A stretch of 64,000 nt of DNA from Chiloscyllium plagiosum (lineage: Eukaryota): contig NC_057753.1 of the NCBI RefSeq assembly GCF_004010195.1, forward strand, positions 1,943,243-2,007,242, written 5' to 3'. Each line of letters opens with the position of its first letter. The first letter of the stretch is position 1. Shown piece after piece: positions 975 to 48,601 of this stretch. The notes beneath the pieces were generated by a model. The model worked only from the letters and a program-made list of their open reading frames with translations, was not told the origin of the DNA and did not search any database. The position numbers and the translations under genes were made by a program.

Positions 975-3034
975 CTATTTTGAAAATTTACACACTAATA
1001 TCAGGGGAAATTTTACCAAATTCTTTAACTGTTCTCTGAATTTACTTTGGGTCCCTGCATAAATAAATGGGTTGACGCAGGAACTCAAAAGCTGAAGCAT
1101 GAACCCACCCTCGTCGAGAATAAAATTTGAATCATTGTAATTTGAACCTGAGAAATAACTGATTTTTGCAAATTGTACATAAAGGAAATTCAGGAAAAAC
1201 AACAAATATGACAGGAGGAAACTGCCCGAGATGGCAAAGAGTAATGCAATGGACTTCTGCCGTTTTGTCATCTCTGGGTCGCTGTGATTTTCCCCGTTGC
1301 TACTGATCCGGAGTCTCTTTCGGATTCTACTGGCCGATAGGACATGCCTGACAATGAGTGCATTGAACAACAAAATCAGAATGAATGGAAAACAAGGATT
1401 TAGAATTGCTATGATCCACTCAAATGCAACCCAATAGGGTGACGTATAATATATTGATTTGACGCTGCAATACCAAGGTACATTGTTAATTATAAAGTTT
1501 GGCTCATAGGCAAAGTACAAGGGAACGTTACTGATAAAGCTCAGAACGCAGGTAGTTGCTATAACCACAGATGCTACTCTCTCAGTACAATATTTCATTT
1601 TCAGTTTCTGGCAACAAATGGCAACGAATCGATCAAAGGTGAAAGTGACAGTTACCCAGACAGAAGAATCTCTGACTCCATAACATATCACAAGACTGGA
1701 ACTAAAGACCGGGGTGATGAACAGGAATGTCATTGGGAAATAAATACCCACAATCCGGTTTAATACGACAGCTGTGATAATGACCAGTAGATCCGTTACC
1801 GCCATGGAAATCAGGTAATATGCAATGCATTTGGATAGACCGCATCTCTCTCGTGACAGGATAGCAATTACTGAAAGGTTAGCTATGAGAAAGAGATATA
1901 ATGAGTGAAAACATCATATTGATAAATGTAGATAAAGCCAAAGAGAGGCACAAATTGTCATTTGGAAAAGCTCAACTTCTGGAAGCAATTGCAAAGACAG
2001 AACAGAGTCCCCATTTTGTACTAGAAAACTTTCTCTTCAACTGTAGAAAAAATCTGCAATTAACAGTGAGCCCTGAGTAGTATACAACAGTGGCATCAGG
2101 GATGCCTTGTAATTTTGACGTTATTTTTTACCGTTTAGGGGCAGGAATTTCATTCCATTCTGTTCTTGGGAAATTTGTACACGGGAACAAAAGCCAAAGT
2201 GTTCCTAAACATTGGTATATTGAAGAAGCAGTCATATTACCATTGGGGGTGGCACGGTGGCTCAGCGGCTCAGCACTGCTGCCTCGCAGCAGCAGAGTCC
2301 AAGGTGTGATTCCAGCCTTGAGTGACTGTCTGTGGGGAGTTTGCACATTCGCCCTGTGTCTGCGTGGGTTTCCTGCGGTGTTCTTGTTTCCTCCCACAGT
2401 CAAAAAGATGTGCAGGTCAGGTGGATTGGCCACGTTAAATTGCCCACAGTGTGAGGTGTGTTAGTCAGAGGGAAATGGGTCTGGGTGGGTTACTCTTCAG
2501 AGGGTCGGTGTGGACTTGTTGGGCGGAAGGACCTGTTTCCACACTGTCGAGGACCTAAAGATCTAATCTAAAATTATATCGACGAAGGAAATCACCATAA
2601 AGGAACAGAGGAGAGTGATTGTAAAGAAACTGGGATGAAGTGAGGAGTACAGAGTCAGAGTTGAGAAGTTTTTTGAAGAAGTGACAAAGAGAATCGATGA
2701 GGGAAGAGTATTGGACGTGTTCCGTGCAGGAATTTAACCTAAATCCTGCTGTCCAAACAACTCATCTGACTGACTCACTGGAAATTGCATGTCCCAAAAG
2801 ACAATCCCATTGAATTTGGCCAAGTTGCCAGACTGAATGGAAAATGACTGTGAATTCTCTATGACTTCAGTATTGATAACTCAGACAACGGGTAAACTGA
2901 GCTAAAAAAATTAAAGAGGATATCAAAACTCATCCCTATTTCATAACTAACTAAATTCCTTTACCTGGAATCCCAATAATTGCTACGATTGGATAGTAAA
3001 TCTTGAACAGGAGCCCTTCTGGAAATCCATGCAT
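975..3034 (-). CDS. Two-exon class A GPCR, GPR139/GPR142-like (copy 1, intact, 325 aa); exon 1 = 3034-2965, exon 2 = 1882-975
   Basis: Exon 1 reads MHGFPEGLLFKIYYPIVAIIGIP plus 1 nt, then a GTAA donor at 2964. A pyrimidine tract and AG acceptor at 1884-1883 give A-NLSVIAILSRERCGLSKCIAYYLIS, in frame with ORF 975..1805 (70+908=978 nt). Motifs: GIPAN (TM1), MAVTDL (TM2), SVWVTVTFTFDRFVAIC (TM3), ILLFN (TM5), KSIALLFAISGSF (TM6), NPFIY and SKFREQL (TM7/helix 8). The pattern resembles GPR139/142; orthology is not established. Confidence 0.9.
2245..2571 (+). mobile_element. tRNA-derived V-SINE (elasmobranch HE1-like) in the intron of copy 1
   Basis: tRNA-like head GGCACGGTGGCTCAG with a B-box-like segment, core gagtttgcacattc...tgcgtgggtttcct...ctcccacagtc, and an atctaatcta tail. 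Confidence 0.85.
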
Positions 3035-3101
3035 TTTTGTCTTAAGTTGCGTTTGCGTTTGGGAAGACAATGAAGGATAACTGCATTTGTACCTGACGCC
3101 A

Positions 3102-3157
3102 GGCTCCAGGGACAGCATGAAGAGCATTGGGATTTTCCAAACGTTATTCTAATTGAA
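3102..3157 (-). promoter_or_regulatory. Conserved upstream motif pair of copy 1: O/E(EBF)-like TCCCTGGAG and homeodomain TAATTG
   Basis: The 13-mer ggctccagggaca (3102-3114) and 8-mer taattgaa (3150-3157) are identical in copy 2 at the same spacing. The 35-nt spacer matches at only 19/35 positions. Factor assignment is inference. Confidence 0.35.
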
Positions 3158-3776
3158 AAGGAAATCAGATAAGAGATTATTTTTCCCTGCTTGTCTTCAA
3201 TGTTGATGGAATTGAATTTAATTCATTGATACTGGCACTGTTTCAAAGTGAAGTATGGCTGATTAAGGTGTTTTGTTTTTTTAAAAAAAGATGAAATCTG
3301 AAACAGCCAATGCAAACATGGATAACGATTTTTTACATGTATTATTCTTGTCTATGAAAAAGATATCTTTGACCTGACCTGTTCTATTTTATGGGAACAT
3401 GCAACCATGTTTCCTCTTCTGGTCATTATTCAGTCTGGGTGATTAGTGATTCGGGCCAGTCCCTCTGAAACTATGTAACCACTATAAAACAACGATCTGT
3501 AAATGAATTGTGCGAATGTCCATTATATTTCCTTTTGCAGATCCAGGGCAGGTTAATTTTTACGATTACGTCCAGTGACGTTTGGACCACATGGGTACTG
3601 TTGCAATATATTGTGCCAGTCAATTGCAAGTTGGTCGTACTCAAATACATCATGCATTAGTCCAATTCAACTGTTTTATCAGAATTGATATTTGCTATTT
3701 TCTGCCTCTGCATTTAGACTGAAGAAACCCTGTTCAATGTGAATACATTCAGTATAGTATGATCCAGGGCATACTG

Positions 3777-3934
3777 CAGTACAACCTTTGTTACCAAACA
3801 TCGATCATCCAACTTTCAGATTATTTGAACAAGATCTCAAAGTTTGATGCATGGGTAAACTGTGGTATCTGCACATTCTATTAGCCGAGGGAAATACTCC
3901 CCAACCATGTTGTTAGAATAATAGTGTTGCCCTG
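3777..3934. mobile_element. ~158-bp MITE (Tc1/mariner-pogo/Tigger type)
   Basis: Imperfect TIRs (cagtacaacctttgttaccaaac ... gttagaataatagtgttgccctg) flanked by TG and TA. The paralogous sites at ~15705 and ~49305 are empty and carry a single TA. Confidence 0.6.
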
Positions 3935-4910
3935 TATTGCATTTTTTCTGTGCATGACCATGTCAGTGTGGTGGTCTTCACTGGGGAACTTGCGTGGGAA
4001 AGGACGTGGGTAAATCCATTCATTGAACAGACGGGTACTGGTCCAGTTTCACAAGGTTAAATTAAATGTAGACAGATGCATTCAGAACTCAAAATGATTG
4101 CAAAAGGATGGATCCATGTCCTTGTCAGGATACGTTTAGTCAGTGCAGAAACGTGCAGAGAGAATCGAATTAACAACTGTCCACTTGAATTTGGCTATTA
4201 ATACACTGAAAGCACGCAGTTGTGATTATTCCATTCTGTGTTGAAAATTCCCATTCTGTTGAGTTCAGCACAGTTACACTCAGAGTAGCCATGATGTAAA
4301 AGCGCCAGTGTTGCTGTTATGGACAAATGTAGAGTTATGTACCTTCAGGTTTATTTGAAATCACAAGTTTTCGAAGCGCTTCACCTTCATCAGACTATAA
4401 GCTGTTGTCGTGTGACTTCTAATATACAATGCACTTAGGATCAACTGAGGATACTTACCAACATCTTGCCAAATCCAAGTTAACAGCTTGACCTTCGGCT
4501 TTTGATCAAAACTGTAACACGCTAAGGAGCAGGTGAGGACATTCAGTTTGGAGTGACGAGGTGGATTCCGGAAATAAAGCAATGGTTATATTTGCTGCTT
4601 TTTCAAGATATCCTCGTAAGGGAAGTTTTTCTTTAAATGTGCGTGCCTGAAATTTCCTTGGACAAGATCAGAGTAGAGAGCCTGGCAAAGACTGAAATAA
4701 ATAATATTCTATACAGAAATCGAGTGATTGTTCCACTATTCAATGAGAGCATGGCTGAGCTAACAATCCTCAACTCAAACTTTCTGACTTTCACCTACAA
4801 GCCTCGACTCTCTTACTTATTAAAATTCTGTCTATATCAATCCTAAATATTTTCCGTTACATAGCTTCTAGACCTCTCTGTGGGAATTAATTCCATAAAG
4901 TCACGACCCT

Positions 4911-5209
4911 AGGCAGCACGGTGGTTCAGTGGCTACCACTGCTGTCTCACAGCACCAGGGTCCCAGGTTCAATTCTAACCTAGAGCGACTGTCTGTGTAG
5001 AGTTTGCACATTCTCCCCGTGTCTGTATGGGTTTCCTCCCACAGTCCAAAGATGTGTAGTTCAGGTGAATTGACCATGTTAAACTGCCCATAATGTTAGC
5101 TGCATTAGTCAGAGGGAAATGGATCTGGGTGGGTTATTCTCTGGAGAGTCGGTGTGGACTTGTTGGGCCGAATGGCCTTTTTCCACACTGTAGAGAATCT
5201 AACCTAACC
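4911..5209 (+). mobile_element. V-SINE (HE1-like)
   Basis: Head ggcagcacggtggttcagtgg...ggttcaattc, V core, and aatctaacctaacc tail. The paralogous site at ~16595 is empty. Confidence 0.85.
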
Positions 5210-8200
5210 TTCTGACAAGAAATTCTTACTTGTTTCTGTCTTAAATGTGCAACCTCTTAATCTGACATTTTACGTTGTCACCCGAGACATGCCCATAAAC
5301 TGAAACAACCCCTCAGCATCTACCTCATCAAGCTTTCTACGAAGAATATATGTTTCAGTAAGGTCGTCCTCTCATTCTCCTAAACTTCAATGTTTACAAT
5401 CCAACCTACTTGGATTACCCTGCTCATGAGAAAATCCCTCCACGCCTGAGAACAGTAAATCTTCTTTGGACTGCCTCGAATGCCATTATTTGTTAACTTA
5501 GCTCAGCGTACCTTAACCTATAATGTAATTCTCAGTTCGGTTGCAGTCGTACCTTTTGTAGGTTTTACAAGACTTCCCTACTTCTGTATTCAATTCACTC
5601 AGTCAAGGGTTAATATTCCAGTTACCTTCCTGATTATCTCCTGGAGGTGCATGCTAGCTTTCTTTCAGCGATTTATGCATGATCTCTCCAAAATGCGTTT
5701 GCACGTAGTCTTTTTAGATAACAGCAGCTCATTCTTTTTTTGCAAAATTTATGTTCCAATTTAGATTCCATTTACGAAATTTCTGACAGTCATGTAACCC
5801 TTATGCATTTCTCTGCAGACGTTTTGGGAGATCCTCACCATTTGTCTTCCTCCCTCCCTTTCTGATACCAGACTTATTTGCCTTATTGATATCGTAGATA
5901 TGTACTGTAATTAATTATACTCCCAGTACTATCCCCATAGTACTCCACTAACTTCAGATTCCCATCTGGAAAATGTCTATCCTACCCTCAATTCTGTTCT
6001 CTATTAAGTAGCAAGTTCTCCTTCCATGCCAACGACTTACCCATCTTAGGCTTTTATCAGCAACTTATGAGCAGGACCTTATCAAACACCTTTTGTAAAT
6101 TTATGCATATTAATATATTGGTACAAGTTTATGTTCCTGCTTGTTACCTTCTCAAAGAATTATAATATACTTTTTCCACCATCGTTCCCATTTGTATGAA
6201 GACATGTTGAATCAACTTGATTCGAGGATGTTTTTCTCAATATTCTCTAATTGCATCATTTATAATAGACTCCAATATTTTTCGAGTGACAGATTTTAAG
6301 ATAACTGATAATTTTTGTCAGTTCTTTTTTAACCAGTAGTTTGGACATTTCCACCAATTAAGAATTATTGGAATGTTATTGCCATGTATCCTCAGTCTAT
6401 TTAGTTGTATCCTTTGATATCGTTAAACACAAGATTCAGGCAATATATTGGCTTCTGGCTCCAGCAACGTCCCTAATGATTTTTCTCGAGCGACAGTGGT
6501 TGCATTACCTCATCTCCGACCATTTTCTGTTGAATATATAGTACGTTATGAAGGCGGTCAGTGGTTACTTTCATGCATGGGCTACTTCGGGCACCTACCA
6601 TACCTCACTCCACACCCCTCGCTTCATCCCAGGCGTCTTCTTGAGATTTTCTTTATGGCTACTTCATTCACCAAACCAATATCGATCCATAAATAATTCC
6701 TTTTCTTTCTGACTGTACTTAGAATAGCAACAGAAACTCATGCCTTGCTGGAAGTTGCGCTGGGACATCGTGGTGAAAGCGTCGAACTTTAACATGAGAG
6801 CATCAAATAAACTGTCTGAATACATAGATAGTTGGCCTATTAATGCTAATTCTAAACCGCAGACAAATCTCAACTGCACTCCGGGTATTACTCACCATCT
6901 CTTTTGTTCCCTTTGCAGTATGACTCCTGACTTTAAGTACTCAGAAAATTGGTGTAAGTACTCATCAGAAATGCATGGAGAGATAAGTAGAGTTATGGTT
7001 TAGCTCGGTGACATGTGTCGCTAACCTGAGAGGTAGCAGCTATTAATGAATATGGTAGAGCAGATAATGGGAATTTAAAATAATATAATCTAGTTGTGAC
7101 GCAGGTAGACAAATTACTTTGGGCAGAGCTTTTGAGGAAATGCTAAGGACGATAAGGACAATGGAAGTTCAAATTAGTTCCTGTAAAAATTTCTTAATCT
7201 TGGCTGTGAAGAAAAAATAGAACATTAAAGACTGACAATTATTGTGAGATGAGGGTTTGAAGATTTGCAGAGTCAACCCAGGATCCAAAGATAATTTTGT
7301 TTCATATAATTTAAAAAAAAATTGTGGGGAGTATAAGTGGGCTATGCGAATACGTTTGTGATAGGTCTCATGTACTCCGTGTCTCAACCTTGCCATCACC
7401 TCGTTTCAAAATCTTCTTCAATTTTAAAACTTTGTTGTCAGAACTGGAGAGACCGATGTTAAAAAGCAGTCAGCAGATTAGGAAGAAAGAAATTCCAAGG
7501 ACTAGAATTGGCAAAAGTCAGACAAGAAGTGAAAAGTTTGCGAGAATAATAATAATTTACTTGGGTTGAATATCTGGAAAGGCTTTATTTGGACATAATT
7601 TGAACGGTGTTTGCATATTATTATAATAACTATTAACTATGTATGTAAAACTCTATATTGGTGCCTTTCGTTTGTCGATGTTCTACAAACTTGCATAGTT
7701 TCTTTTCAGAAATTCAGAATCAAGTATTTCTGATGTTGGACAATTCTATCTAATTTCAAAAAAAATTCTTCCCTCAAAAAAGCCCCCGATTCTCCACAAT
7801 CTCTTCTTAACACAAATCAATCATCACCAGAATCATTTTGGTAAACAATTTCTGCACATTGTGTCACGTTTTCACATTGTTATGAAGTGGTATTACTGAT
7901 TGATTAAAGGTCCAGTAAACCTTGCGTTGCATTTATGGTCCAAACAAACACTTGCACATAAAGTTATAGATCTTGTAAATGCGTCCTGCCACCTTTATGC
8001 ATTTTAACAAGCATGATCCTTGGTGTTACAGCGTTATGGAGTGTTCAACTTTCCGCTGCGCCACTCTGCTGCATTCAAAATAGTCATTTCTGCAGGTTAG
8101 TGTTTATCACTCCAGTTATCCAGAGTAGACTGAGGGACACAATCAGCCAAGCTATCGGGTTTCATCAGAATAGACAAAGAAAGTTGCTGAGCAATCCAAC

Positions 8201-9284
8201 GAGATGCTGAGATGGCGAGGTTAATCAATTATGTGGTAAAACATCTTGCTGATGAATACGTGATGCTCACAACTCAGTCCCGCCTTTCATTCCATGAGCA
8301 TTTGAATTTGGACCAACAACACAGAATGGACATTTGCAGTTTATTCTTGTTTCTAACCAAGGATATAAGAATGGTTGCTTGACATATTTCCTTCACTGAA
8401 CCAAGTTGCCTGCAAACCTTGATGTACTGAAAGTAGCACAGTCCATTAGACATCTTTATACGACAGGATTAGTGTGTGTGGCATATGGAGGGTATGAGTT
8501 CAATTTCGACTAATAACAGCTTTTATTAATATGGATCAGCAACTAGTGGAATATCAATAATATTCCAAAATAATGAAAAATCTTGCAAAATAACATTCTT
8601 AATTTGGTGAGACCAATTTATGTGCATAGATGAGAGAATTGTCCCGAGGGAATATCACAAGGATCCTGTCCTCGTTAAATTGCGTAAAAGACGATTTACC
8701 TCCGTTCATATTTTCAATTTGCTGCAAAACCTCAACGGACATTTAAATGTCTAAACATAAAAAATTTAACTGATATAAAAAATATGAACATAAGTTGCAA
8801 ATAGAACAGAAATCTTGCAAGACTAGCAGCAAGACTTGTTACATTATTTTCAATATAGATTGGTGCGAACTGAATTATTTTCCGATGAAAATAATAGGAG
8901 ATTGCATGTATAGGGCAAACAACAATGGGTTCTCACAGCACGGGCACACAGAACGTAGAAACATAGCTTTCAGAAAAAAAAACAAACTTATGTTTTGGAG
9001 GTTAAATCAAATCGGATTCAAGTGAAAATCTATGCTGTTACATTCCTCTGATACTAGACAGTATTAAAATATATTGCTGCTCTGTTGACTGTTTGAGTTG
9101 TCGTTTTGACACCGATGTTTCACTTTTACTACCAGAACTGCAAGTTTATATCATTCAGAAATGATGAGTTAGACCTGAGGCCGTTGTCTTGAGAACAGAA
9201 GAGCAGACATTTGACTGACGAAATCCTGTCGAGTCCGACACATTTTTACAAAACCAATAATTGGGAGGATAAAAACTGGAAGAA

Positions 9285-9495
9285 TTCCAGATGCTGTAAA
9301 TGAGGAACAAACACAGAAATTGCTGGAAGAGCTCAGCTGGTCTAGCAACATCTGTGCAGCGAAATCAGAGTGAATGTTTTGAGTTGATGTTCAGTTCTGT
9401 GGAATGGTCACTCTGTCCAAAACGTTAACTCTGATTTCTCTCCACAGATGCTGCCACACCTCTTAAGTTACTCCAGCAATTTTTGTTTTGTCTCA
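9285..9495. mobile_element. Degenerate palindromic PLE-derived repeat (inverted pLTR arms)
   Basis: acagaaattgctggaagagctcagc...atctgtg...aaatcagag is inverted against ctctgatttc...cacagatg...ctccagcaatttttgtt. A decayed hammerhead-like core lies at ~9397-9428. Confidence 0.55.
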
Positions 9496-10207
9496 TTACT
9501 TGGTAGATACTTTGAAGTCATAGTATCGATATCAGGTAGGTTAAGAGGTATGAGACCAGATCCCTGATATCATAAACACCCTGATTTTGCCCTTACATCC
9601 AATATTATTTTGGAAAATAATATTCAAATCCAAAGTATTTTTAGGACGAAGAACGTGGTTAATTGCAAGACTTTTTTTTTTTCTAAATTCTATTCCAATG
9701 CATTCCTCACAGTGTATTGTTTTTTTCCAAATCATTGGTTTCGTGATTTGGCTGTAATCCATCTGAACCAAAGAGGATCGCTGGTGCACAGTGCAATGAG
9801 TCCAATGAAGTACTGTAGATAGTGCCGACACAGACCCTAATATTCCAGAACTTTTACTGTCAACACTTGGTACATACGAATTCGGATTTTAGAATTGTTC
9901 GTTTATCGCTGGTTAGAGATTCAAGGTGACTACCTGCATATTTGCTGAGAGTTCCACTTAATCTGCCTCATTTTTAATTTGAGCTATGGTTTCTTCCTTC
10001 CTGTTATACTTATTGTCTTTCCTCCTACCTTCTGCTTACCCTAATGCACAGAATGGAATATACGTTTCTCATTTCTGTATTACAAGTCATTGATATATTT
10101 CATAACAAGACATACTTCCTCAAAGAGGAGAGCACAATAGAAGGAAATTTATCGCGGTTGCTGCTATCCATTAATGCATTTTAAATAGTCGCATATACAT
10201 ATTAATT

Positions 10208-11010
10208 TAGTCATAGCATCATTCAACATGGCAACAGCCCTTTGGTCAAAACAGTCCTTGCAAAGTATAATGCTGAAATTAAACTAGATGCACCTACCCA
10301 CGCTTGCCCCATATCCTTCAAACATTCTTTATTCAGGTCCTCAGCTAAATGCCTTTTTAAAAAATGTAACTATTTACTACTTCTTTTGGAAGTTCATTCC
10401 ATACACAAACCACTCACTGTGTAAAGAAAAAATGCCTTGTTTTATTTTTAAATCTTTCTCCTGTCAACTTAAAATACGTAACCTAGTTTTGCATTCCCCT
10501 ACTCAAGGGAAAGAACACCTGCTATTCACCGTATTTTTGAAACCCTTCAACGTGTTCAGCTCAGTAAAAAAAAGGCCCAGTGTATCCAACGTCTCCTTAT
10601 AAACCCTCCATTCCCAGCAACATCCTGACAATCTCTTCTGAATCCTACCCAGTTTATTTAAAAAACGTTCTTCAATATGGAGACCAGAACAGGAGACAGT
10701 GCTCCAGAAAATACCTCACCAACGGCCTGTACATAATCAAGATAATGTCCCAACTCTTATACTCAAAGGTCTGAGCAATGAAGGCAAGTGTGTTGAATGC
10801 CTGTTTGGCCCCTTTCCTCATCTAAAAGTTATACAAAGTTAAAAGAAATACGTATCTGAATTCCTAGTTCTCTCTGTTCTACAACACTTCCCGACACCCT
10901 GCTTCTAATTGTATAAGTCTTGCCTTCTTTTGTTTTATCAAACTGCAATACCTCATATTTATCACAATTCAACTCCATCTGCGACTCTTCAGCTCAACGC
11001 ACAAATTTGA
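10208..11010 (-). mobile_element. Old CR1 LINE 3' fragment, shared with the paralogous position 58956-59425
   Basis: CR1 3' UTR and ORF2 C-terminal sequence (gaccagaac...acagtgctcca) on the minus strand. Confidence 0.7.
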
Positions 11011-11889
11011 CGAGAATGGTGAAAATAATATCCATCTGAAATGTAATTCCATTTTGTCAGTTGTCGCCCTTTAGAAAGCAGAGTGAAGTATTATTGTGGG
11101 GTTATGTAATAAAATATCTAGGAAATCGTTACGGCAGAGAAATACTTTCTGAATCACTGTTATAAGGAAAACCTACAACAGAGTTCTGAACAGGTAAAAT
11201 CATGTCATTGTCACGTGTATTAGTTCCACCACCAAAGAAAAATTTGGAAACACCAACATTGAGAAATAACGAGGATCTCAGAAACTGGCGTCAGCAGTTT
11301 AACAGTCAAAGCCTCATTCGTTTTCCGGAATAGTCAATACCAAGACACTAGATGAAAACATTCTCACTGATCCAGAAATATTGCAGAACCAACAATTCAA
11401 GATTTTTCTCTTGGTTTACGATTATTTGGTGAAAAGAAGTTTTCAATTATTATATAGAAAACAACATCGATTCGACACAGGAATAATAATGCCCATTTAT
11501 ATAGAAAAATAAAGAACCACTTCTATCTACTGGTCATGCAGTTCATTAAAATTTAACGAAGATTCCATATCTATCATATAAGGTTGCTTCTCTTTACTAC
11601 AGTTTTATGGACAGTATGGGATTCAATTCTCTTATTGCGAGTCAGCGTGACCATTGCACGAGGTGCTTTTCCTTCCAATCTGTCAGATCTGACATCACAC
11701 ACGGAAGGAATTGCCAGCATATTCGTTTCATCATTAGCAGAAGAGCGCATAATTGCTTGTTCTGTAAAACCCAGTAGTATTCATGCCTTATTTAAAGACA
11801 TATTATTTCGTTCGCATTCTGCTTGAACTAAAATAAAAGCCTTTTCTTCTGCATGACCACCAGATCGATGATCTAAACAGAGTCAAATA

Positions 11890-34632: not shown

Positions 34633-34638
34633 CACCAT

Positions 34639-34951
34639 TGTATTCCTAGCACCAGAGCAGAAGAGATACATTTTGGTGGTGTTTTGTTTTAAAATCGTAG
34701 CTTGTAAAGTTTTGTAACAGGATAAGTTGAAGGCCAGGATCAGCGTTCCACCAAAAAAAAGTGGCATGAAAGTGAAGTCATAATTTCATTCATTGGTGAC
34801 AGCTACTGATATGTTTACAAAGCAGAGGGTACTTTCAGATTGAAGGTGAATCGGGAAAATATTTGCAGATTGGGGTGCAACATTTTAAAAAAAATCAAAT
34901 TAAGGGCAAAATGTTTAAAAAAGAGATGTTAAGCTGGGTGATATGTTGTAC
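34639..34951 (+). repeat. ~310-bp direct repeat, copy B
   Basis: See 31354-31667. Confidence 0.9.
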
Positions 34952-37510: not shown

Positions 37511-37623
37511 TCACTGTAGAAATAATTGAAACATGAGTGTCAGTGGACATTTCACATGTTTCATTAACTGCACGCTGAATTTACTCTGAGTCCCTGCATA
37601 AATAAATGGGTTGGTGCATGAAC
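37511..37623 (-). pseudogene. 3' coding remnant (TM7, helix 8, stop) of a third GPCR paralog
   Basis: Minus strand translates SCTNPFIYAGTQSKFSVQLMKHVKCPLTLMFQLFLQ*. The adjacent ~36200-37510 is homologous to the downstream flanks of copies 1 and 2. Homology stops abruptly at ~37623. Confidence 0.85.
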
Positions 37624-37699
37624 AAGAACATGAGTAGGTCATTCATCCCTTCGATCCTGCTCCTTTGTCAGTTGATGCAGCATTTGAGTAAAACTATTT

Positions 37700-40600
37700 C
37701 TATGTATGTTACCAAATGGACAATTTAGACTCATATAAAAGTATGAATAGAAACGTTAATAAAGGTCCTTCATAATTATTACTGTTCTTGTGACGTTAAA
37801 TGTAAAATACAGAGGCGTGCATTAGTTCAGTGAAGCATTGAAATGGGCACAAGAGTGCAAGAATAAGAACAGGAGTAGGTCACTTAGTCCCTCACTCCTG
37901 CTTCAGCCTTCAGTAATATCGTGCTTGAACGGTACACCGGCATATTTCACTCAATGTGACTGCCTTGGGCCCATATTTCTTTAAGACCTTGCTCAATAAA
38001 AAACATGTGTCTCTCAGATTAAAATTTCACAATTGAAATAACATCGATCACTATTTGATGAAGAGAGCTGCAATCTGCAAATACATTTTACATGTAGACA
38101 GGCTGTCTAAAATCTATCCGGAATAGCCTGGCCATAATTCTTACACTCTGCTACCGAGTTTCAGACATTTTCAATAGTGTATGCCATTGCTATTTGCCTA
38201 CCCTGTCTTTTCCTGTTAATCTCCTGAAAACTTACGTTAACTGTCTAAAGTTTAGGGAATTAAGTTCCTAATTTTTCTAATCTATTCTCAAAACTTAACC
38301 CTTGAAGTTCAGGTATCATCCTTGTGAACCTGAATTGAACGCCCACAAGGGCCAAATCATCCTCCAGAATGTCTGCTGCCCAGATCTGCTCACATTATCC
38401 AAAGTAGTGTCTGACCAGTGTATGCACAACAGCAGCCGAACATCTGCATTCTTATACTGCAGCCCTTGCGATGTGAAAACCTGCATTCTATTCACCCCAT
38501 GACTATTTTCTGCACCATTTCATCACGCTTCGAAGAGATTTTCAGTTGAATCCCATATTTCACTGGGCATTCACATTTAATTTTGTTCCATCTAAACAAA
38601 AATCCTGATCTATGCAAAAGGTAGGAATAAGTGCTATTTAAAGTGAAAGCTAACGCCCACGAAATGTCATTACTCTAAAGAGTTTCAGCGAAGGGTTGAG
38701 GTTATAGCTATCTGTCGCATTTTGTTTCTAATAGTGATTACATCTCAAATGATAGACATTATGTGTGGTGCGTTCAGATATAAACGTTTTTATATAATTG
38801 AAACGTTAATGAGTAATACTGCTCAATAATAAATTTTACAGTGACGGCAACATTGATTACATGGTGTCCAATATATTTTCCTTCATGTTATACTTCTGAG
38901 CTATTGCAGCCTTAGGCTAGAGATTTCACATGCATAAGCAAGGAATTCATTATCTTGTTTGGTTGGCTACCCTTTGGCATGAAAGATGTATGAAAAGAAG
39001 TAAATAATCCCTGTCTCACTTTACAGCCCTTCCACCCTTTGTGGCTTATCCCCTCTCCATTGTATCTCCTGTCTCCCTTTGCATTCACTTTCCCAAAGTT
39101 GTGACTTTCCATTCTCCTCGTCTGCCAACTCTGCTCATATTACATTCCAGTTACCTTTGCATCTTGACTACTTCCAGCCTTCCTGAATATTGCTTCTTCT
39201 TGCTGTTGTTCTAATTGCAGGCGTCTTGTTTCATTTGTTTTTTGCTGATATGCTCGTCAAATATTCTGTCCATTCTTCTACGTTTCTGTTGATTACTTGT
39301 CACCGTGGTTGAATTTCATTGACAGTTTGTGTGGCTTTCAAGGATGAAGTAGCTCACTCCTGGATTGTGCTTTTGCTGTTGCATACCAGCTGTTTTGATA
39401 CGGTGAATTTTTAAAACATACATGTGGATCTGTGGTATTTTAGTTGTCACATTTACATTATAGATGAGTTCTTGCACTTTTGGAATCAAATATTGAAAGT
39501 AAATCGGATGGCTCTCTTATTGGTTGTATCAATTGCAAATTGAACAGAAATGGCTTCCCTCCATAACGTAGTCTTGCTCATGAGGGAAGCATCCATTTGC
39601 GCAGCATACTGTGAAATATTACATGAAGCATCTGCAGATTAATGAAAGGAGTCAGAACCAAAGAAAACCAGAAGTGTTGAAATCCTTACCAAACCTGGCC
39701 AACTGTTCATGAAGTCTTCCTTCAGGTGGCAGTAGATTTGAGCACAAACATTCAAGGAATTCTAAGCGTCATTGAGGCATATTTGCCTGGCGTCATCCAG
39801 ATAGGTGATCCTTGCTCATTTTACATTGTGTTGCGGATATTGCCTTCAGTGAGTTCGAAATTCGTGTTCTTCTTCATCCTTGACGATTAATGATAGTGGT
39901 AATTTTGATGTCAGTATTGCTCAACTGGCCCGAATCAGTGCAAATAAAGTAAAATGAATTTCAGAATTGACCACTGATATACTGAAAAATATTTCTATCT
40001 CAGATAAATTACACTCTGAGCAAGATCAGAGAGAAAGATATTTTAACTTGGTTCAATATTTGAAGGTTTTCCAATCTCAGTTTCATATCCACAGAGATTC
40101 CTGAACAGCAATCTCCCTGGTGACACTGGTGATTTTCGGATAACCTTAGAAATCCCTATACAATTGCAGGTTGACTCGCAATGCACGCTTATCATTCTGT
40201 TATTTGTCTTTTAGCATCCTTATTCAAAACTGCCTCTCTGACTGAACTAGCGGGCCTTGAAGTATCCATTAGGTATTGATTTTGTTTCGGAAAATTAACA
40301 TGCTGCAACTTTGCCTTCTTGAACTCCTTGGACCAGGAATTTGTTGTCTATTATTACAAATTATTCTATTCACATTTGTTGTGGAACCGACCTTGTAAAT
40401 TGCTTGCACTGTAATTGCATGCTACTTCCAGTGAAGGGCATGTCGAACCTTAGTTCTGCTTCATTAAAAAGAAGTATCCAGAAAAGTAACCATTCTTCTC
40501 AAAACAAAATTGTGGTACACGGTTCCTCTGTGCTGTATCGAACATCGTATTCTCGAACAACTTTGCTGATTAATATGACGACATTTTAGTGTTCTCCCTA

Positions 40601-42740
40601 TAATGTTGTACCCATTCTTCAGTACAAATGCCAATCAGATCTAAATCGAATTGTAAATATTGCTATTGAAACATGAACCTAATATTAAATTCTAGAAATT
40701 TGCGAATAGCAGTGGAATTAATGACTTTTACGTATTGTGAAATATATCTGCATTAAAGATGCAGTTATACCCAGTCAATTGCCATTTCTGACTTTACTTG
40801 TTGACTCCAGAATGTTAGCTCATCTAAGCAAGCCAACTTGCACTCGAGCTGACTCAAAACGAACTATTAAGGTCTTGGAAATAAGAAAAGATTAGTCATA
40901 GGAACAATGGGATCAAAAGAGAATTTAATGGAAACAGTAGACATAACGCATGGACCAACTGGTGTGTGGCACGGTGGCTCAGTGATGAGCATTGCTGCCT
41001 CAGAGTGCCAGGAACACGGGGTTGATTCCATTCTCGAGCAGCTGTCTGTGTGAAGTTTGCACATTCTCTCCGCGCCAGTGTGAATATTTTGCTGGGTGCT
41101 CCCGTTTCCTCCAACAGTTCAAAAGTGTGCAGGTGAGTGGTTAAGCCATGAGGAATGCAAGTTTAAAGAGATATTGTAGTGGTCTAGTTGGAATGCTCTT
41201 CGGAGAGTTGATGTGGACATGATGGGCCGGATGGCCTGCTTTCATACTGTAGAATTCTATGACTACAATGAACATTCTGACTCCTCTTTTATGTTTCTGC
41301 TCTGAGAAAAAAATGGGACTTTGAGTGGTAGACCAATTAGATAAGCAGGAAATAAACAGGAATAAGTAAACGATTGGTACAGCTCAAAGTATTCAGATGG
41401 ATACATCCTGCTTTGATAAGTAGAAGCAAGTGTAGAAAATGAGATTCTAGTCACAATTTTTCAATTTTCCTGCAATACTGACGTCGTGACAGATGAATGA
41501 AGAGTTGGATGTATATTATGTCTGAAACTAAAATGAAGGAAACAGACCAAGTAATCATGAGCCAGGCACACAAATGACAGAATTTTGGGTTCTAAGGGAT
41601 GGGGGTGCGGAGGTATAAAAAGCAGGACCACAATATAAATAGTTTTCACTTAGAAAATAATGAGATAATAAATGACAGCCTAAACGGTTTTATTAAACAC
41701 AAAACCTGACAAACATGATTGAGTTCACGAAATTAAACGAATGATGAAGATCGTCCTGTTAATACTATACATGTCTATTAAATAAGATGTTTCATATCAA
41801 CCTTACATATTAGCAAATTTTAAGCCCACTGTATTAACAAGCCTTGGCAGTCACATCGTTGGTACAAAATTAGACAGAAAACAGGAAATGGTAATGAGTA
41901 GATGTGATACAGACTTAAGGGACATATATTCCAGCATCCTATAGGTATTCGGATCACTGTTCTTTTAATATATATTAATCATGCGGTATAATTTCAGATT
42001 TTACAGAAGACACACAAGTTGCAAATGTAGAACTCAGTGAAGAAGAGAACAGCAAACTTCAGAAGTATATTTTGTAGAAAATTGCAGACTTGCAACAAGC
42101 CTGTGATGCGTGGAAATGCATTTTGAAAGTATGAGTGAGAAAAGGTAACTTAAACTAAACGTTGCAGCATACTTACCTTAAATAAAATTACCTTAACACA
42201 AACCGTTTAATTTTTGAGAGAATTGAATCAATTTTTCTTTTATTAATTTGGGTCCTGGGTAGTGTTTTAGAAAATATGTTCAGGTATATAATTCTTTGAA
42301 ATCTGCACGACAGGTCAGTAGGAGGGTTAAGGAGGCATTTACCACCCTTGCCTTCATTATTCAGACCTTTGCATATTGGGGTTGGGGCATCACGTGGAAC
42401 TTGCAAAGAATGTCAGTGAGTCCTCTTCTGGGCTATTGCATGTAGATCTGGTTGCCCTGTTATAGGAAAGGCATTGTGAAACTGGAGAGCGTTTTGAAGA
42501 GGTTTCACAATCTCTTCTCCTCTGGCTGTCTTGCTGAAGCGAAGTTCCATACAAAGAACGGGCGGGAGGTGGTGGGGTGGGGGGAGTAGGGTGGTGTGGT
42601 GTGGGGATTTAACTATAATGGCAGGCTGGTTTGGCTGACACATTTTTCAGTTGAATGGAAGTGGTTGAGAAGTGACCGCATGGAGATTTATAAAATCATG
42701 AGAGACCCAGATAAGGTAAATAGTAGATTTATTTTCCCAA
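37700..42740. repeat. Second copy of the spacer block, lacking the 18428-21810 CR1
   Basis: Colinear with 17915-27900 at the anchors listed there. Confidence 0.8.
40961..41262 (+). mobile_element. V-SINE
   Basis: Head gtggcacggtggctcagtg, V core, and attctatg tail. Confidence 0.8.
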
Positions 42741-42744
42741 GAAG

Positions 42745-43322
42745 CATAGAGTCATAAAGATACACACAGAGAAGCAGAACTTTTGATCCAACTCGTCCAC
42801 ATGACCAGATATCCTATGTAAGTGTAGTCCCATTTTCCAACATTTGGCCCATATGTCTCAAAACAATCTAATTAATATATCCATTCAAATATCTTTTCAG
42901 ATATTGCAATTATACTAGCCTGCATCACTTAACCTGGCAATAACTTCTAAAACTGCACCGCCCGCTGCATGAAACATTTGTCTCTTAGAACTTTTGTGAA
43001 CCTTTCCCCGTCATCTGAAACCTATGCCATCTAGTTTTAGACTCCCGTGCCCTGGCAAAAAGGACCTTAGGGATTTATACTATCCAAATCCCGCCAAATC
43101 AAAAGTCCACCATGATTTCATAAACTGCTATAAGGTCACCGCTCACCGTCCAAGTTCCAAGGAAAATAATCCCAATGTATTAATCCACGCCATCTAACTT
43201 AAACGCTCTAACTCTGGCAACATCCTTGTGATTCTTTTTGGCACCCTTTTAAGTTTAACAATATAATTTTACAAAGCTAGGAGAATTTAATACAGCATTT
43301 CAAGAGTGGCCTAACCAATCCT
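42745..43322 (-). mobile_element. Degenerate CR1 3' fragment
   Basis: catagagtcata tail, then aaacctatgccatctagttttagactccc...ggcaacatccttgtga. Confidence 0.75.
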
Positions 43323-46053
43323 GTTGTTTAGCAGAGCAGATTTAAAGATCTGAATAGTATATCCCAGATCATCTTCTATATATTTATATGCATGGTCATA
43401 TTGAAACTCCCCACTCGGGACAATTGTTAGACTTGTATTAGATCTTTTAAAACAAGGGGGTTAGACTTTTCACTGAACGCTTAAGATCTCTGCTCAGAAA
43501 ATTATTACCAAACCGCCCTTTGTACGGAACTCATCTTCAGCAAGACAGCCAGAGGACAAGTGAGAAAAGCAATGAGTCCATCCTCCTTCAGCGAGGATGA
43601 GCAATAAGTAATAAAACCCTGGGTGATCCGGAGAAACTAGACAGGAGTAGGGAGTACGTGATAAATCTGGTTTAGACTGAAAACTCCAAATAAACCTTCC
43701 CTGTTCCCGTTTTTGCACCCACAGGACTTTTGTTTCTTTGGGATCAGTCCATTTTTTCAGGTACCATCTTTGCTCCATTGGGATCACGGGGCATGCCGAA
43801 TTGTCTTGGTTACTGATCCGTATCTTGTCCTTCTCATCATATTTCACAAAAATGTTTCCAAGCTTCTGGAAATGCTGACCTTGTTAGTCAAGATCCAAGT
43901 GTTTAATATACATCAGGAAAACTTATGAACCTCTGTGAACTCCCGACACAAAGCTCTTCCAATGCAAAAGCTAATTGTTTCTGACGAGTATTTCGTATCA
44001 ATTTTTTTGCTGTAAAGTTTATTTCATTAAGTCCAGTGGTTTGCTTACCAACCCCCGCTGAATCAATTTATTAAATCACGTTGTACATACCTTTCAAATC
44101 AATTGTATTAACATGCTTTTACCTCAACAACAAAAAACATGGAAAATTTTCGGAAATGATTTCCTCGAAATAAAATTTGTACAAGCTTTCTTGAATTAAC
44201 AAATATTTGTTCTAATGACTGTTAACTCTTTAACAAATTACAATTCTAAAGAGTTTCCTGCTATCGACATTAAAATAACCAACCTTTGCTACTGCTGTTA
44301 ATCTTTTATCTATGATTAGTGGAGATTTAATTTTATTTACCAGGAACAGTGATGTAAATGAGTGAAGGAATTTAATTTCAATGAGAACGAAAGGACAACT
44401 GATCAAGAACTCGACAATTGATCAGATTTCACAAGGTATAACCTACCAACCATAAGTATGATAACTGAATTATTAATGAAGATTTGTCAGGCTGTTACTA
44501 TTATCGAATATAAAAACACCGTGAATGTGTAAAATTCGAAAAAGCGAGTAGGAAATTTTCAAGACCCACACTGACGTCGATTGATTCGGTAGAGACATAA
44601 ATTAGCTCACGTCTCAGTCTGTGAGCAAGTAAGAGGAATTGGATTGTGCGGTGCAGTTTGGGGGCGGATGACGGGTGGAAGTGGGAAGAAGAACAAAAGC
44701 GAAACCCTCTTATTGAGTTATTGGTCGGAAAATAAATAAGTCAGGAAAACGTTGTGAAACCAATGGAAGCAGTCAAGGCAGAAAAGGATATGCCTGCATC
44801 AGGCGTGAATAGAAAATTTCAATGCAGAAAAATATAATAGAAAATAAAGTCAGAGAGAAACACCAAACAAGGGACAGAAACCAAATCAACCATTCTTGAA
44901 CTTTGCATCTTGAAGGCTGACAATTGCTTCCGATTAATCCCAGTTCAGATGAATCGTCACAGACCTACAAACTTCACTTAATTCCTCTCCTAGGGTAAAG
45001 CCCAGATGGGGAGTTGACTTCCCTCCCTAGTTGCGCAGAGATTAACGTTGGACTGCCTAATTTTTTGGGTAGCGCTTGTCAAGAACCAATAAACTGCTGG
45101 CTGCTGGTTTGTCAGTTTCTATTGATTCATTATTGGATGGCAGACAAATCGTCAGTCCTGTGCCTGTAAAGGTCGGACATTCACTTGTACCTGCCTTACC
45201 TGCCCTTTTACACGCTGGGGGTGAGCATGTGGGTATGCTATCCAGCTCTGGTTCAGTTATAGATATATTATATCTGTTATCCCTGTCTCTTTCCCCTCTC
45301 CATCTTCTTCCGCTGTTTGCAAGTGCTGTCTGGTTCCCTTCCCTGAAGGACGTCAATGAACAAGTTTAGTTTATCATGAAAACCCCACAACTTTCATGGT
45401 AATTTTGTTCCTCTCAGTGTCAGCTCCACACATTAGCAGAATCATTACCGCGATGTCACAACTAGTTGGTGATTTATGAGATTCTCTGTCACTGATTTTT
45501 TTCTTCTAAGTTAAATCATCTTCACAGGAAATTAGAGGGAATGATTTGCTATCAGGAATTCGGTGCAAATATAATGGCACAGTAGAATCATTGGAATACT
45601 CTGTTTCTTTCACGAAAATGTTGGGATGAATTTGAGGGAGCAAGGCAGAGCCAGCATAGCCTGCAAACTGAGAGTTTTTTTGAGGGATAGTAGAATCCGC
45701 TTTCATGTCATTGAGTGCCACTAAAAAATAGGGAATTGTCATAAAGCACTGGTTGATACTACAGATCATTATACGGTTTTGACGTGGAATTATATGAAGG
45801 ATCGAGGTGGCAAAACCAGCCTTTTGATTTCGTTTTCACTGCGTTTTCCTTCCTGAATCACGTATTTCCCCCTTCATTCCATCTGATTGTACGATCAAGT
45901 GCAGGTGTATGTGCAGAGACTGCTGATCACAATACAAAACATAAAGTAGGATAATTCAAGAGCACAGACTGTTCAAGATGAAATGTGTAATTGTGTATTT
46001 AAAAAGTCTAATAGATTGAACTCAAATAGCAATTTACTGTGATATTGATGTGA

Positions 46054-48601
46054 TCACAATTTAAAACATTTAAACACGAGCATCAGGGGACATTTAACAA
46101 TCTCTTTAACTGCTCCCTGAATTTACTTTGGGTCCATGCATAAATGAATGGGTTGATGCAGGAACTCAAGAGCTGAAGCATAAACCCGCATTCCTCAAGA
46201 ATAACATTTGAATCATTGTAATTTGAACCTGAGAAATAATTAAGGTCCGCAAATTGAACACACAAAAACGTCAGGAGAATCAACAAATAAGACAGGAGGA
46301 AACTGCCAGAGATGGCAAAGAGTAAAACAATGGACTTCTTCCTTTTTTCCATTTCTGGGTCGCTCTGAATCTCCCCATTACACCGTGTCCGGAGTTTCCT
46401 GCGTGTTCTACTAATCAATATAATGTTTTTTGCAGTGAGGATATTGAGCAGCAAAATCAAAATGAATGGAAGACAAGGGTTTAAAGTTATTATTATCCAG
46501 TCAAATACAATCCAATAGGGTGAGGTATAATATATTGATTTGACGCTGCAATACCAAGGTACACTGTTTGTTATAAAGGAAGGCTCATACGCAAAGTACA
46601 AGGGGATGATTCTGATACAGCTCAGAGTGCAGGTAGTTGCGATAACCACAGCGGCGACTCTCTCAGTACAATATTTCACTTTCAGCTTCGGGCAACAAAT
46701 GGCAATGTATCGATCAAAGGTGAAAGTGACAGTTACCCAGACAGAGGAATCTCTGACTCCATAAAGTAACACAAGACTGGCACTGCAGACTGGGGTGATG
46801 GACAGAAATGTCTTTGGGAAATAAATACCCACAATCCGGTTTTTTTCGCAGCTGTGATAATGACCAGGAGATCCGTCATCGCCATGGAAACCAGATAATA
46901 CACAATGCATTTGGAAAGGCCACAACTCTGTCGTGACAGGATAACGATCACTGAAAGGTTTGCTTTGAAAAAGAGATAAAACGAGTGAATACATGATATC
47001 GAAAAATGTATATCGAGCCAAAGAAAGACACAGCAGACATTTGGAAATTCTCAATTTTCTGGAAGCAATTCCAAAGTCAGAAAAGGGTCTACATTTTGTG
47101 CTGAAAATAGTTTCATTCAAGTACAGAAAAAAAACTAACTAACAGCGAACTCCCAGCTGTATATAATAATGACAACAGTCATATGTCCTAAATTGTGACA
47201 TATTATGTTTACGATTCATTTTTAGGAAATTCATTGTATTCTGCTTTTGAGAAATTTATACAGAGGAATAAAAGTAGGCATCGTCTGAAACGTAGATAAA
47301 TTGAAGAAGCAGTAATACTGTATCCACCAAAAAACGACCATAACGAACCAGATGCGATTGAATGCAAAGAAGTCCCCAGAGATTCACATTGACGCAGATA
47401 CCCAGGAAGAGATCACTTATTGAGAAAAAAACAAACTCATTTCTAAACGGAAAGAAACCTGGGATTGCACCTGATAAGTATCTTGAGAGAATGCAACATT
47501 GTTTTGTGAAGACAATAAAACAATACGGTAGATGAAGTCCAATTATGGCACTGTTGACAATGGTGTCTCTTTTGAATACAATGATTTTGGCTTCAAATAC
47601 GACTGCAAAAAACTCAGTAATGACTGAGTACTGCACTGCCCGAGTAGTTACAATTGTTCCAAACCAATAAATTCAAGGTGTGATGAATTAGGATTGAGTA
47701 CAACATCGACTGAACTGTCATCAAACTGCTGTTAATATTGCATCGCAAACAACAAGAACTGAACCATGTTTAAACTAATCAACGTCAGTAGCTGTGCAGA
47801 ACCGAAAAAAAGTGTAAAATTAATTGACAGTTCTAGTGCACAAAGTACAGTCGAAGTGCAATTAAATATTCATTCCAATGAGATGCTTCATGTGCAGTAA
47901 TTCCGTTACGAGCATAGCAATACAACAATTTCGACTTCTGATGATAGCAATCAACCATAAATGGAAGGTGGGGGAATGATACTAATCAAGGAAAGATTGC
48001 ATTAGCAACGTAAAGAAGCAATGCAATTGAAGAGGATAAATGACACTGTAAAGGTGGAGAAAATAAGATAGAAATTAATTGAAAACGTCTTGTTGGTAAA
48101 ATGGAATATTAATGCTCTTCAAAAGAAGATGAGACATTCCAACTCAATGTAGGTTAAGTTGCCATACTCTTACTGAACTGTAAGGCTGCTCTCTCGTCCA
48201 AGGGAGACGACGAGTGATCATTTTAACTGTAGGTCGGTATGCTTCAGATGGTGTAGGAGGTTGAAAAGGAGTTCCCTTCATGGGAACCACAGCCAGTGCA
48301 GGATTTGGACGAAAACCTTCCTTCCATCCAACTGAGCTGACTGACTTCCTGAAAACTATACACCAATAGACAATCCCATTGAATTTGCCAGAGTCGCCGA
48401 ATTGATTATGAAAAAACGATGAGTTCTATGGTAATGCAATATTAAATAGTCAAGGAGATTAAACTGAGATGAGAAAATTAAACAAGATATTAAAAACCAT
48501 ACATAATTAATACCTAACGACGCTCCTTTACCTGGAACCCCTACAGTTGCTAGGATAGGATAGTAAATCTCAAAGACGAGTTCTTTTGACAATCCATGCA
48601 T
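46054..48601 (-). pseudogene. GPR139/142-like GPCR paralog (copy 2) with two -1 frameshifts; exon 1 = 48601-48532, exon 2 starts at 46962
   Basis: Same 70-nt exon 1 (MHGLSKELVFEIYYPILATVGVP), GT donor at 48531 and AG acceptor at 46964-46963. Exon 2 aligns with copy 1 but has 11 nt (GCGAAAAAAAC) where copy 1 has 12 (GTCGTATTAAAC) at ~46839-46849. This gives a ~99-aa product ending at 46733. A second missing base near 46098 moves the stop from 46054 (ancestral VKCPLMLVFKCFKL*) to 46083. Confidence 0.8.

Follow-up and report, generated by a model that had tools for sequence, protein, structure and literature searches.

The 64-kb window (the whole stretch of Chiloscyllium plagiosum DNA that was analysed) contains an array of one gene with an intact frame (gene A), one frameshifted gene (gene B), a 3´ remnant (unit C) and a gene-less block (unit D), all on the same (minus) strand (Table 1). 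The coordinates and the profile matches agree on this layout, which had been described in an earlier note, and the exon coordinates confirm that both full-length copies have a 70-nt first exon and a very short N-terminus. No further copies were found in the window with the family profile against 3414 six-frame pieces or with DNA profiles of both exons, and the window holds no Rfam match.

Table 1. Features of the receptor array, in window coordinates
Feature	Position	Strand	Description
Gene A downstream flank	9..974	-	Homologous to the downstream flanks of gene B and the remnant
Gene A exon 2	975..1882	-	Remainder of the class A 7TM receptor; PF00001 E 5e-21
Gene A intron	1883..2964	-	1082 nt, GT-AG; SINE-like repeat within, ~2247-2567
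Gene A exon 1	2965..3034	-	70 nt; start codon (ATG), N-terminus of 12 residues, beginning of TM1; family profile positions 1-23
Gene A upstream flank	3035..15257	-	Collinear with the gene B upstream flank (48602-63468)
Unit D	15273..17519	-	Gene-less upstream-flank copy corresponding to A 3390-6726; neither exon 1 nor gene present
Unit C downstream flank	17916..37521	-	Collinear with the gene B downstream flank (37696-46082); broken by retroelement fragments
Unit C 3´ remnant	37522..37624	-	~30 codons, TM7 and helix 8
Gene B downstream flank	37696..46082	-	Flank comparison
Gene B exon 2	46083..46962	-	Two 1-nt deletions
Gene B intron	46963..48531	-	1569 nt, GT-AG
Gene B exon 1	48532..48601	-	70 nt
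Gene B upstream flank	48602..63468	-	Flank comparison with A

Genes and partial units of the array

Joining exon 1 to exon 2 of gene A, with the splice placed after 325-aa homologues, gives a stop-free reading frame of 325 aa. Judged by its domain (PF00001, 7tm_1; 75.8 bits against a cut-off of 30.5), helices and motifs, gene A is a class A (rhodopsin) GPCR. Its predicted structure is helical, and the listed fold matches are class A GPCRs throughout, although a search with a model of this confidence (pLDDT 64) cannot rank among class A receptors.

The conserved TM3 cysteine (3.25) is replaced by phenylalanine in gene A (codon 1706-1704). This cysteine is present in 118 of the 120 best relatives (the top 120 matches to gene A, clustered at 90% identity and carrying automatic GPR139 labels) and the ECL2 cysteine in all 120, so that the TM3–ECL2 disulfide pair, near-universal in the family, is incomplete in gene A. 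Because of this replacement, gene A may be impaired or mis-called. At base 1705, all 15 contigs of a DNA sequencing run carry the Cys-type letter and none that of the window; the Phe codon is possibly an allele or an assembly error, and the covering contigs may all be paralogues. Several differing contigs cover exon 2 (for example, 26 contigs depart from the window's letter at 1245 and 31 do so at 1797), which points to paralogues and gives no copy number. Given the missing cysteine, the window may lack any working copy.

In gene B, the first deletion (~46849, codon 62, TM2) leads to a premature stop at codon 100, while the second (~46099, codon 312, helix 8) was absent from the earlier note. 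Homopolymer error as the sole cause of the first frameshift is an unlikely rescue, the adjacent TM2 codons now also being lysines. Read in the frame of gene A, gene B has no in-frame stops. This, combined with a dN/dS of 0.35 between A and B (bootstrap 0.24-0.49) at a dS of 0.39, indicates long purifying selection and a recent death. Gene conversion between the two is ruled out by a dS that is not lower than the divergence of their flanks (0.25-0.36 substitutions per site). A 13-nt block lies ~80 nt ahead of the ATG in both genes and resembles an O/E (EBF) site; with flanks 72% identical, chance alone would produce such a block, and it was not used as evidence.

The remnant of unit C is recovered by tblastn (E 1e-7), nhmmer (E 1.3e-20) and the protein profile (E 5e-10), and an RVT_1 domain lies inside its downstream flank (19470-20078). 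The block of unit D matches the upstream flanks of both A and B. In gene direction, the downstream flank of unit C is positioned 5´ of the upstream block of unit D, and C and D diverge from A and B by 0.35-0.45 substitutions per site, more than A from B. Because of this flank order and greater divergence, four ancestral units are the simplest reading, which bears out the earlier proposal of at least four; the divergence is too great for C and D to be fragments copied recently from A or B. Compared in this way, the units and their flanks show that tandem copies were gained and then lost by deletion and frameshift.

It could be proposed that copy number simply drifted in a repeat-rich region, leaving copies that are superfluous or bind no ligand, with constraint relaxed and no functional diversification. 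An open frame in only one of four units, and that one lacking the conserved cysteine, would fit such drift, as would the abundant retroelement fragments in the flanks; the dN/dS of 0.35 accumulated over this dS argues against it.

Relation to GPR139 and to an orphan sister gene

Database names, the top solved-structure match and the two-exon gene shared with GPR139 (PMC7318219) would fit a shark GPR139 (or GPR142) orthologue with few local duplicates, serving as a brain Trp/Phe sensor. This is highly improbable and already contradicted by the data. Gene A is 19-21% identical to GPR139 chains, against the 70% given for human and zebrafish GPR139 (PMC7318219), and the residues of the GPR139 Trp/Phe pocket (E108, F109, H187, W241, R244 and N271) correspond to C, Y, I, Y, F and F in gene A, with none of the six identical. 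With this pocket lost, aromatic amino acids are not favoured as ligands. These results uphold the earlier suggestion that the gene is no GPR139 orthologue; the copy number is also not one, and a nearer sister that is not GPR139 exists.

Against solved structures, the family profile places human GPR139 at the top with 50.3 bits, level with the TRH receptor (50.1), whereas salamander, coelacanth and teleost orphans reach 115-196 bits. The coelacanth relative finds GPR139 with 70.4 bits, the next match scoring 43.9. By these searches GPR139 is the nearest characterised receptor, weakly when approached directly and clearly via the coelacanth relative. A single-sequence PDB search did not reach GPR139, and an amphioxus profile search aimed at true GPR139 returned 14 proteins, none vertebrate-named.

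In a tree built without true GPR139 or GPR142 sequences, the shark family is sister to an amphibian and sturgeon gene with support of 100/99. This orphan, named 'probable GPR139', gave 20 matches from 20 amphibian species plus one from a sturgeon, and is 26-30% identical to gene A. The label GPR139/142-like in the earlier note therefore stands for the wider group, with GPR139 as nearest characterised member, but not for the closest relationship, which is to a separate orphan of amphibians and sturgeon, with one gene in each species. This orphan and the neighbouring coelacanth, teleost and amphioxus orphans may correspond to the GPR210 group described by Rinne et al. (2019; PMC6504862).

The shark copies resemble GPR139 further in a histidine at 5.42, their commonest residue at this site (56/120), but differ in their many copies instead of one, in a variable rather than fixed pocket, in the loss of the E108, R244 and N271 equivalents, and in a TM6 proline that is mostly gone (Leu in 87 of the 120 relatives). 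With the orphan sister they share an equally short N-terminus, while the sister keeps W6.48, P6.50 and N7.39 and has an invariant pocket. In the atlas, the neighbours of the shark family are clusters with a Srw domain on 17-74% of their members and an FMRFamide-receptor-like cluster; GPR139 itself has been linked to AST-B/FMRFamide receptors (PMC12208981). The AcCRs of Aplysia provide a precedent for clustered, lineage-specific chemoreceptor candidates of rhodopsin type (PMC2700072). Such invertebrate expansions (FMRFamide/MIP-receptor-like, Srw-type and, presumably, AcCR) are independent of the shark family.

Family size and ligand-pocket variation

The horn shark (Heterodontus francisci) accounts for 79 of the top 120 matches, and these 79 lie on five contigs (55, 10, 10, 2 and 2). 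With 55 copies on one contig and copies lost in the window, the earlier idea of an expanded, clustered family with birth-and-death turnover is well supported. Deep subfamilies in the tree are common to sharks, skates and rays, which speaks against mere drift in copy number. Literature searches turned up no description of this elasmobranch family, and the gene names had no match in the supplements of PMC8455134 (in part), PMC10529500, PMC13188829, PMC11589584 (for the most part) and PMC11806052.

The 120 best relatives show a conserved helix scaffold and activation motifs, with D3.49, R3.50, N5.58 and N7.49 in all of them and Y7.53 in 119; the TM1 motif starts at residue 13 in 70. By the alignment, it is the pocket-lining positions that differ between copies. 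With helix positions numbered from motifs rather than from a structure, mean entropy in sharks is 1.44 at 23 pocket positions, compared with 0.65 at 130 other helix positions (p 3e-6) and 0.91 at 50 non-pocket positions of the outer half (p 0.004). Such entropies do not test for positive selection, and the 120 sequences share ancestry, were picked for their similarity to the query and come to two-thirds from the horn shark. The excess persists within four species sets and without the horn shark. Amphibian orthologues show the reverse, the overall identity of the two sets being similar (71% and 77%), with 0.05 in the pocket and 0.42 elsewhere in the helices. Furthermore, nine-site pocket strings take 70 different forms among 79 horn shark copies and a single form among 20 amphibian orthologues. 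Between A and B only, no excess is seen (6 of 21 pocket positions differ, and 27 of 110 other helix positions).

From these patterns, the shark family is very probably a ligand-diversified repertoire. Variation denser in the pocket than at neighbouring outer-helix positions again disfavours copy-number drift, which we consider quite improbable.

An elaborated GPR142-like nutrient role, in which endocrine or germ cells of the gut, gill or reproductive tract sense metabolites or peptides, is improbable. GPR142 is an amino-acid sensor of pancreas and gut (PMC7318219), the amphibian sister retains a GPR139-like F3.33, W6.48, basic 6.51 and N7.39, and in the catshark, V2R expression extends to testis and rectal gland (PMC11979771). 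The shark copies, however, have lost the polar part of this pocket (N/I/T/S at 3.32, F/L/Y at 6.51, Y/F at 7.39), and at least 70 pocket variants would seem to exceed the need of a nutrient sensor.

Candidate tissues and significance

Two single-cell RNA runs of unspecified tissue (2% and 6% read) yielded nothing assignable to gene A, a result that would also suit drift. Among the runs searched for expression, one reached roughly single-read depth at 991-1100 and had short 80%-like matches at 1541-1760, an interval of repeat-level depth in the DNA run; another gave nothing and a third only repeat-like pieces, and these are evidence in neither direction. Two catshark findings speak against a chemosensory home: the top-50 list of a brain-plus-olfactory library contains no GPCR (PMC11979771), and the olfactory neurons are nearly all microvillous, many expressing V2Rs (PMC10116579). 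A top-50 list would, however, usually miss individual olfactory receptors, which are too dilute.

The explanation we prefer is that the window is part of an old, decaying array in which genes of a chondrichthyan receptor family lie in tandem. The family would derive from a single orphan class A GPCR within the broader GPR139/GPR142 group, a gene that is still single-copy in amphibians and sturgeon. Each intact copy would bind different small ligands, presumably in the helical pocket, since the N-terminus has only ~12 residues. With its own ligands for each copy, the family would be a many-receptor detector of outside chemicals, and its most likely single home would be chemosensory cells of the nose, mouth, gill or skin. 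As a whole, an old, ligand-diversified and chemosensory array is the best explanation, held tentatively at a little under an even chance; that the repertoire is chemosensory is, taken by itself, a plausible but slightly less assured step.

Immune, irritant or gut sensing would fit the sequence evidence about equally, with immune or irritant sensing as the main rival. An internal sentinel repertoire, in which leukocytes, mast-like cells or nociceptive neurons carry the copies and so detect microbial, parasite or damage-derived molecules, appears unlikely but deserves serious weight, as the same genomic and pocket signature would be expected. Formyl-peptide (FPR) and Mas-related (MRGPR) receptors of mammals detect such molecules; they are class A receptors with short N-termini, expanded in tandem in particular lineages, which detect varied outside ligands in immune cells and sensory neurons, and their clusters show such turnover. 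The shark family is also a tandem class A expansion with a short N-terminus, but its ancestry is different, in the GPR139/FMRFamide/MIP-receptor group and not among chemoattractant receptors. MAS1 and its relatives have been reported missing from cartilaginous fishes (PMC8455134), which would leave room for a substitute. Moreover, or1 and or4 of the catshark are specific to the spleen (preprint 10.1101/2024.05.23.595469), so tissue is not fixed by receptor ancestry.

The proposed chemosensory array shares clustering, pseudogenes, a compact coding region and a variable pocket with the recognised olfactory families, although it is an unrelated clade. Tandem clusters, pseudogenes, a compact coding region and a variable pocket are typical of OR, TAAR, V1R/ORA and V2R/OlfC genes. 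Shark olfactory repertoires are small, with 8-43 V2Rs across 11 cartilaginous fish genomes (PMC10116579), compared with at least 70 distinct copies of this family in the horn shark.

It is conceivable, with less confidence than for a chemosensory role as such, that this is an overlooked chondrichthyan chemoreceptor family, independently recruited from a GPR139-related orphan lineage and larger in some species than all four recognised olfactory families combined; it would then supply a ligand range unexplained by the small OR, TAAR and V1R repertoires. The paucity of GPCRs and olfactory receptors reported for cartilaginous fishes (PMC8455134; PMC10116579) sits oddly with the chemical sensitivity of these animals. 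Whatever the tissue, this receptor count is changed by a family that has at least 70 distinct pocket variants in a single shark and goes under an automatic GPR139 label. For the ancestral ligand, the amphibian orthologue, being single-copy, is a manageable starting point.

Layout and state of the array

The four elements described in the earlier note as a birth-and-death array of GPR139/142-like receptors are all present on the minus strand: an intact-frame gene (A), a frameshifted gene (B), a 3´ remnant (unit C) and a gene-less block (unit D). The two full-length copies share the 70-nt first exon that had been claimed for them.

Features of the receptor array (window positions)
Feature	Position	Strand	Remarks
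Gene A exon 1	3034-2965	minus	70 nt
Gene A intron	between exons 1 and 2	minus	1082 nt, GT-AG; splice placed from many 325-aa relatives, RNA not used
Gene A exon 2	1882-975	minus	325 aa in total without stop
Gene B exon 1	48601-48532	minus	layout as gene A
Gene B intron	between exons 1 and 2	minus	1569 nt
Gene B exon 2	from 46962	minus	1-nt deletions at ~46849 and ~46099
Unit C remnant	37624-37522	minus	~30 codons
Unit D block	15273-17519	minus	copy of upstream flank only; self-comparison

In the window self-comparison, the upstream 12 kb of gene A are collinear with the upstream flank of gene B, and the downstream flank of gene B (37696-46082) with that of remnant C (17916-37521). The units run in gene direction as B, remnant C followed by its downstream flank, block D and A, and because of this order C and D could form one unit only through a rearrangement. 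C and D lie 0.35-0.45 substitutions/site from A and B, against 0.25-0.36 between A and B. This order and divergence make four old units the simplest reading, in line with the earlier claim of at least four ancestral units in duplicated flanks. No further copy was found in the window by a profile search of 3414 six-frame pieces and DNA profiles of both exons.

The frame of gene A is open over 325 residues, as claimed, but the gene is not intact in every respect: codon 1704-1706 (minus strand) places Phe at the TM3 cysteine kept by 118 of 120 relatives. The partner cysteine in ECL2 is retained in 120/120. At base 1705, the DNA run X1 carries the cysteine-type letter in 15 of 15 contigs and the window letter in none, a count from which the contig of gene A itself may be absent. 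The Phe may be a rare allele, an assembly error or a true loss. The reported frameshift of gene B is accompanied by a second 1-nt deletion, and no in-frame stop occurs when it is read in the frame of gene A. The two proteins are identical at 241 of 323 residues; their dN/dS of 0.35 (0.24-0.49), with a dS of 0.39, points to long purifying selection and recent death of gene B, and the same comparison gives no sign of gene conversion between them. The window by itself is a decaying corner of the elasmobranch family to which both genes belong. Of two single-cell runs from an unspecified tissue, 2% and 6% were examined, and no RNA in them could be assigned to gene A. A 13-nt block ~80 nt 5´ of the ATG, identical in A (~3104-3116) and B (48671-48683), resembles an O/E (EBF) site, its identity being not beyond chance at the A-B flank identity.

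Decayed LINE reverse-transcriptase copies, presumably CR1/L2-like, lie at 18413-21020 (RVT_1 at 19470-20078), 34055-34625 and 50062-52680. Broken frames at 62140-63198 (minus strand), with no Pfam match, resemble a Penelope-type GIY-YIG retroelement. The unit C flank contains a local duplication (34957-35568 and 35607-36202; 650-nt offset, 62% identical), and a younger 316-nt repeat pair is found at 31351-31666 and 34636-34950 (87% identical). The SINE-like repeat in the gene A intron (2247-2567) is covered by thousands of reads of sequencing run X5, and near 2547 many of these reads terminate in poly-A tails; it is a family actively transcribed from elsewhere in the genome.

An elasmobranch family distinct from GPR139

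Exon 2 of gene A encodes a class A GPCR. The homologue search retained 1533 proteins among 4932 candidates; among the best 120 of these, used for all family counts, 119 carry shark or ray names. The closest are a whale shark protein at 80% and a zebra shark protein at 79%, which makes a carpet shark the probable source of the window. The proposed large, clustered family with copy turnover is supported by 79 proteins of the horn shark Heterodontus francisci among these 120, distributed over five contigs (55, 10, 10, 2, 2), and by the dead copies of the window. Deep subfamilies are reached by a profile search of cluster representatives, 9 of 10 checked being from sharks, skates and rays. Most of the best 120 are automatically named "probable G-protein coupled receptor 139", with GPR15-like and sex peptide, capa, FMRFamide or vasopressin receptor-like among the other labels; this spread of names shows the labels to be unstable.

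On the family profile, human GPR139 reaches 50.3 bits, about the same as the TRH receptor (50.1 bits). Identity to GPR139 is 19-21% in structural alignments; human and zebrafish GPR139 are reported to be 70% identical (PMC7318219). The positions aligned with the six GPR139 residues reported to bind Trp and Phe (PMC7318219) are occupied in gene A by C, Y, I, Y, F and F, none identical. Several orphans far outscore GPR139 on the profile: the salamander protein reaches 196 bits and the coelacanth one 185, followed by teleost proteins at 161 and 115 and amphioxus proteins at ~100-125. With such low identity, no shared binding residue and much closer orphans, orthology with GPR139 is scarcely credible, as the earlier note had suggested.

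A word-indexed search with the salamander protein, whose species range does not prove absence elsewhere, returned 25 matches: 20 from 20 amphibian species, one from sturgeon and four from the elasmobranch family. In a 36-row maximum-likelihood tree, which was built without true GPR139 and GPR142 sequences, as was the 139-row FastTree that agrees with it, the 21 family rows (18 from named elasmobranchs, gene A included, and three without species) and the amphibian/sturgeon gene form one clade (100/99), with weak monophyly of the shark family itself (86/26). The coelacanth neighbour scores 70 bits against GPR139 and 44 against the next receptor, and through it the entire group is placed in the vicinity of GPR139/142. 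Rinne et al. (PMC6504862) gave the name "GPR210" to orphans of gar, fish and coelacanth that lie close to these two receptors, a set to which the amphibian and sturgeon gene may belong; sharks are never mentioned in the accessible part of that text.

The amphibian and sturgeon orphan, auto-named GPR139 yet distinct, is apparently uncharacterised and single-copy, and Xenopus would be well suited to its deorphanisation. A few related receptors occur in amphioxus (P0255, P0263, P0320-P0327) with a long third intracellular loop, several sharing a contig (three on one of 21.3 Mb).

The sequences are already known, as RefSeq contains the genes with automatically assigned names. Full-text searches of open-licence PMC and bioRxiv found no account of the family (subscription papers may hold a mention or decisive tissue data), and the papers there that combine GPR139 and sharks appear to concern other topics. 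No mention occurs in the accessible parts of catshark sensory-genome and shark olfactory-receptor papers (the catshark supplement may hold one, or tissue data that would be decisive), genome papers on whale shark and zebra shark or two GPR139 reviews. The accessible text of the whale shark paper describes cartilaginous fishes as poor in GPCRs (PMC8455134).

Variable pockets, retained scaffold and possible roles

Receptor positions were numbered from helix motifs. The 23 pocket positions, a standard list for class A, were fixed after the per-site table had been viewed, and the comparison is not fully blind. In the 120 shark and ray proteins, mean entropy, which does not equate to positive selection and comes from non-independent sequences, is 1.44 in the pocket versus 0.65 at 130 other TM2, 3, 5, 6 and 7 positions (p 3e-6) and 0.91 at 50 outer-half non-pocket positions (p 0.004). 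Among the 20 amphibian orthologues, whose overall identity is similar (77%, versus 71% in sharks and rays), the pattern is inverted (0.05 versus 0.42 elsewhere, p 2e-4). The excess persists in horn shark alone, with horn shark removed, and within the whale shark, Heptranchias and Pristiophorus sets. When nine core pocket positions are read as a string, the 79 horn shark proteins show 70 different strings and the 20 amphibian ones a single string. Against diversification, pocket differences between A and B show no excess (6/21 versus 27/110 elsewhere).

The activation motifs D3.49, R3.50, N5.58 and N7.49 are found in 120/120 and Y7.53 in 119/120. The TM6 proline (6.50) is Leu in 87/120 and position 6.48 is Tyr in 90, versus Pro and Trp in 20/20 of the amphibian sister gene; from these changes, activation may be atypical. 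The very short N-terminus noted for A and B extends across the family (motif at residue 13 in 70/120, pattern unmatched in 42), which suggests the helical pocket as the site of ligand binding.

Very probably, with its steps observed or closely implied, a single ancestral receptor, its ligand fixed and its copy number still one in amphibians and sturgeon, was amplified in tandem in cartilaginous fishes, its copies retaining the signalling scaffold and altering their pockets, and many dying, as in the window. The earlier suggestion of an under-described, expanded sensory repertoire stands for its expansion, lack of description and pocket diversity, but its sensory part is drawn by analogy: detection of outside chemicals in sensory cells is possible, if short of probable, and sensory expression is slightly more doubtful. 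Nearly as good, and on its own unlikely, is a sentinel role in immune cells, mast cells or nociceptors, for which FPRs and MRGPRs are the model. In its favour, relatives of MAS1 are reported to be missing from sharks (PMC8455134). Gut or reproductive sensing is improbable, and drift slightly more so.

At least 70 distinct members are found in horn shark, and 8-43 V2Rs have been reported for cartilaginous fishes (PMC10116579). The shark family looks like an undescribed, ligand-diversified repertoire, in horn shark larger than the reported V2R sets.
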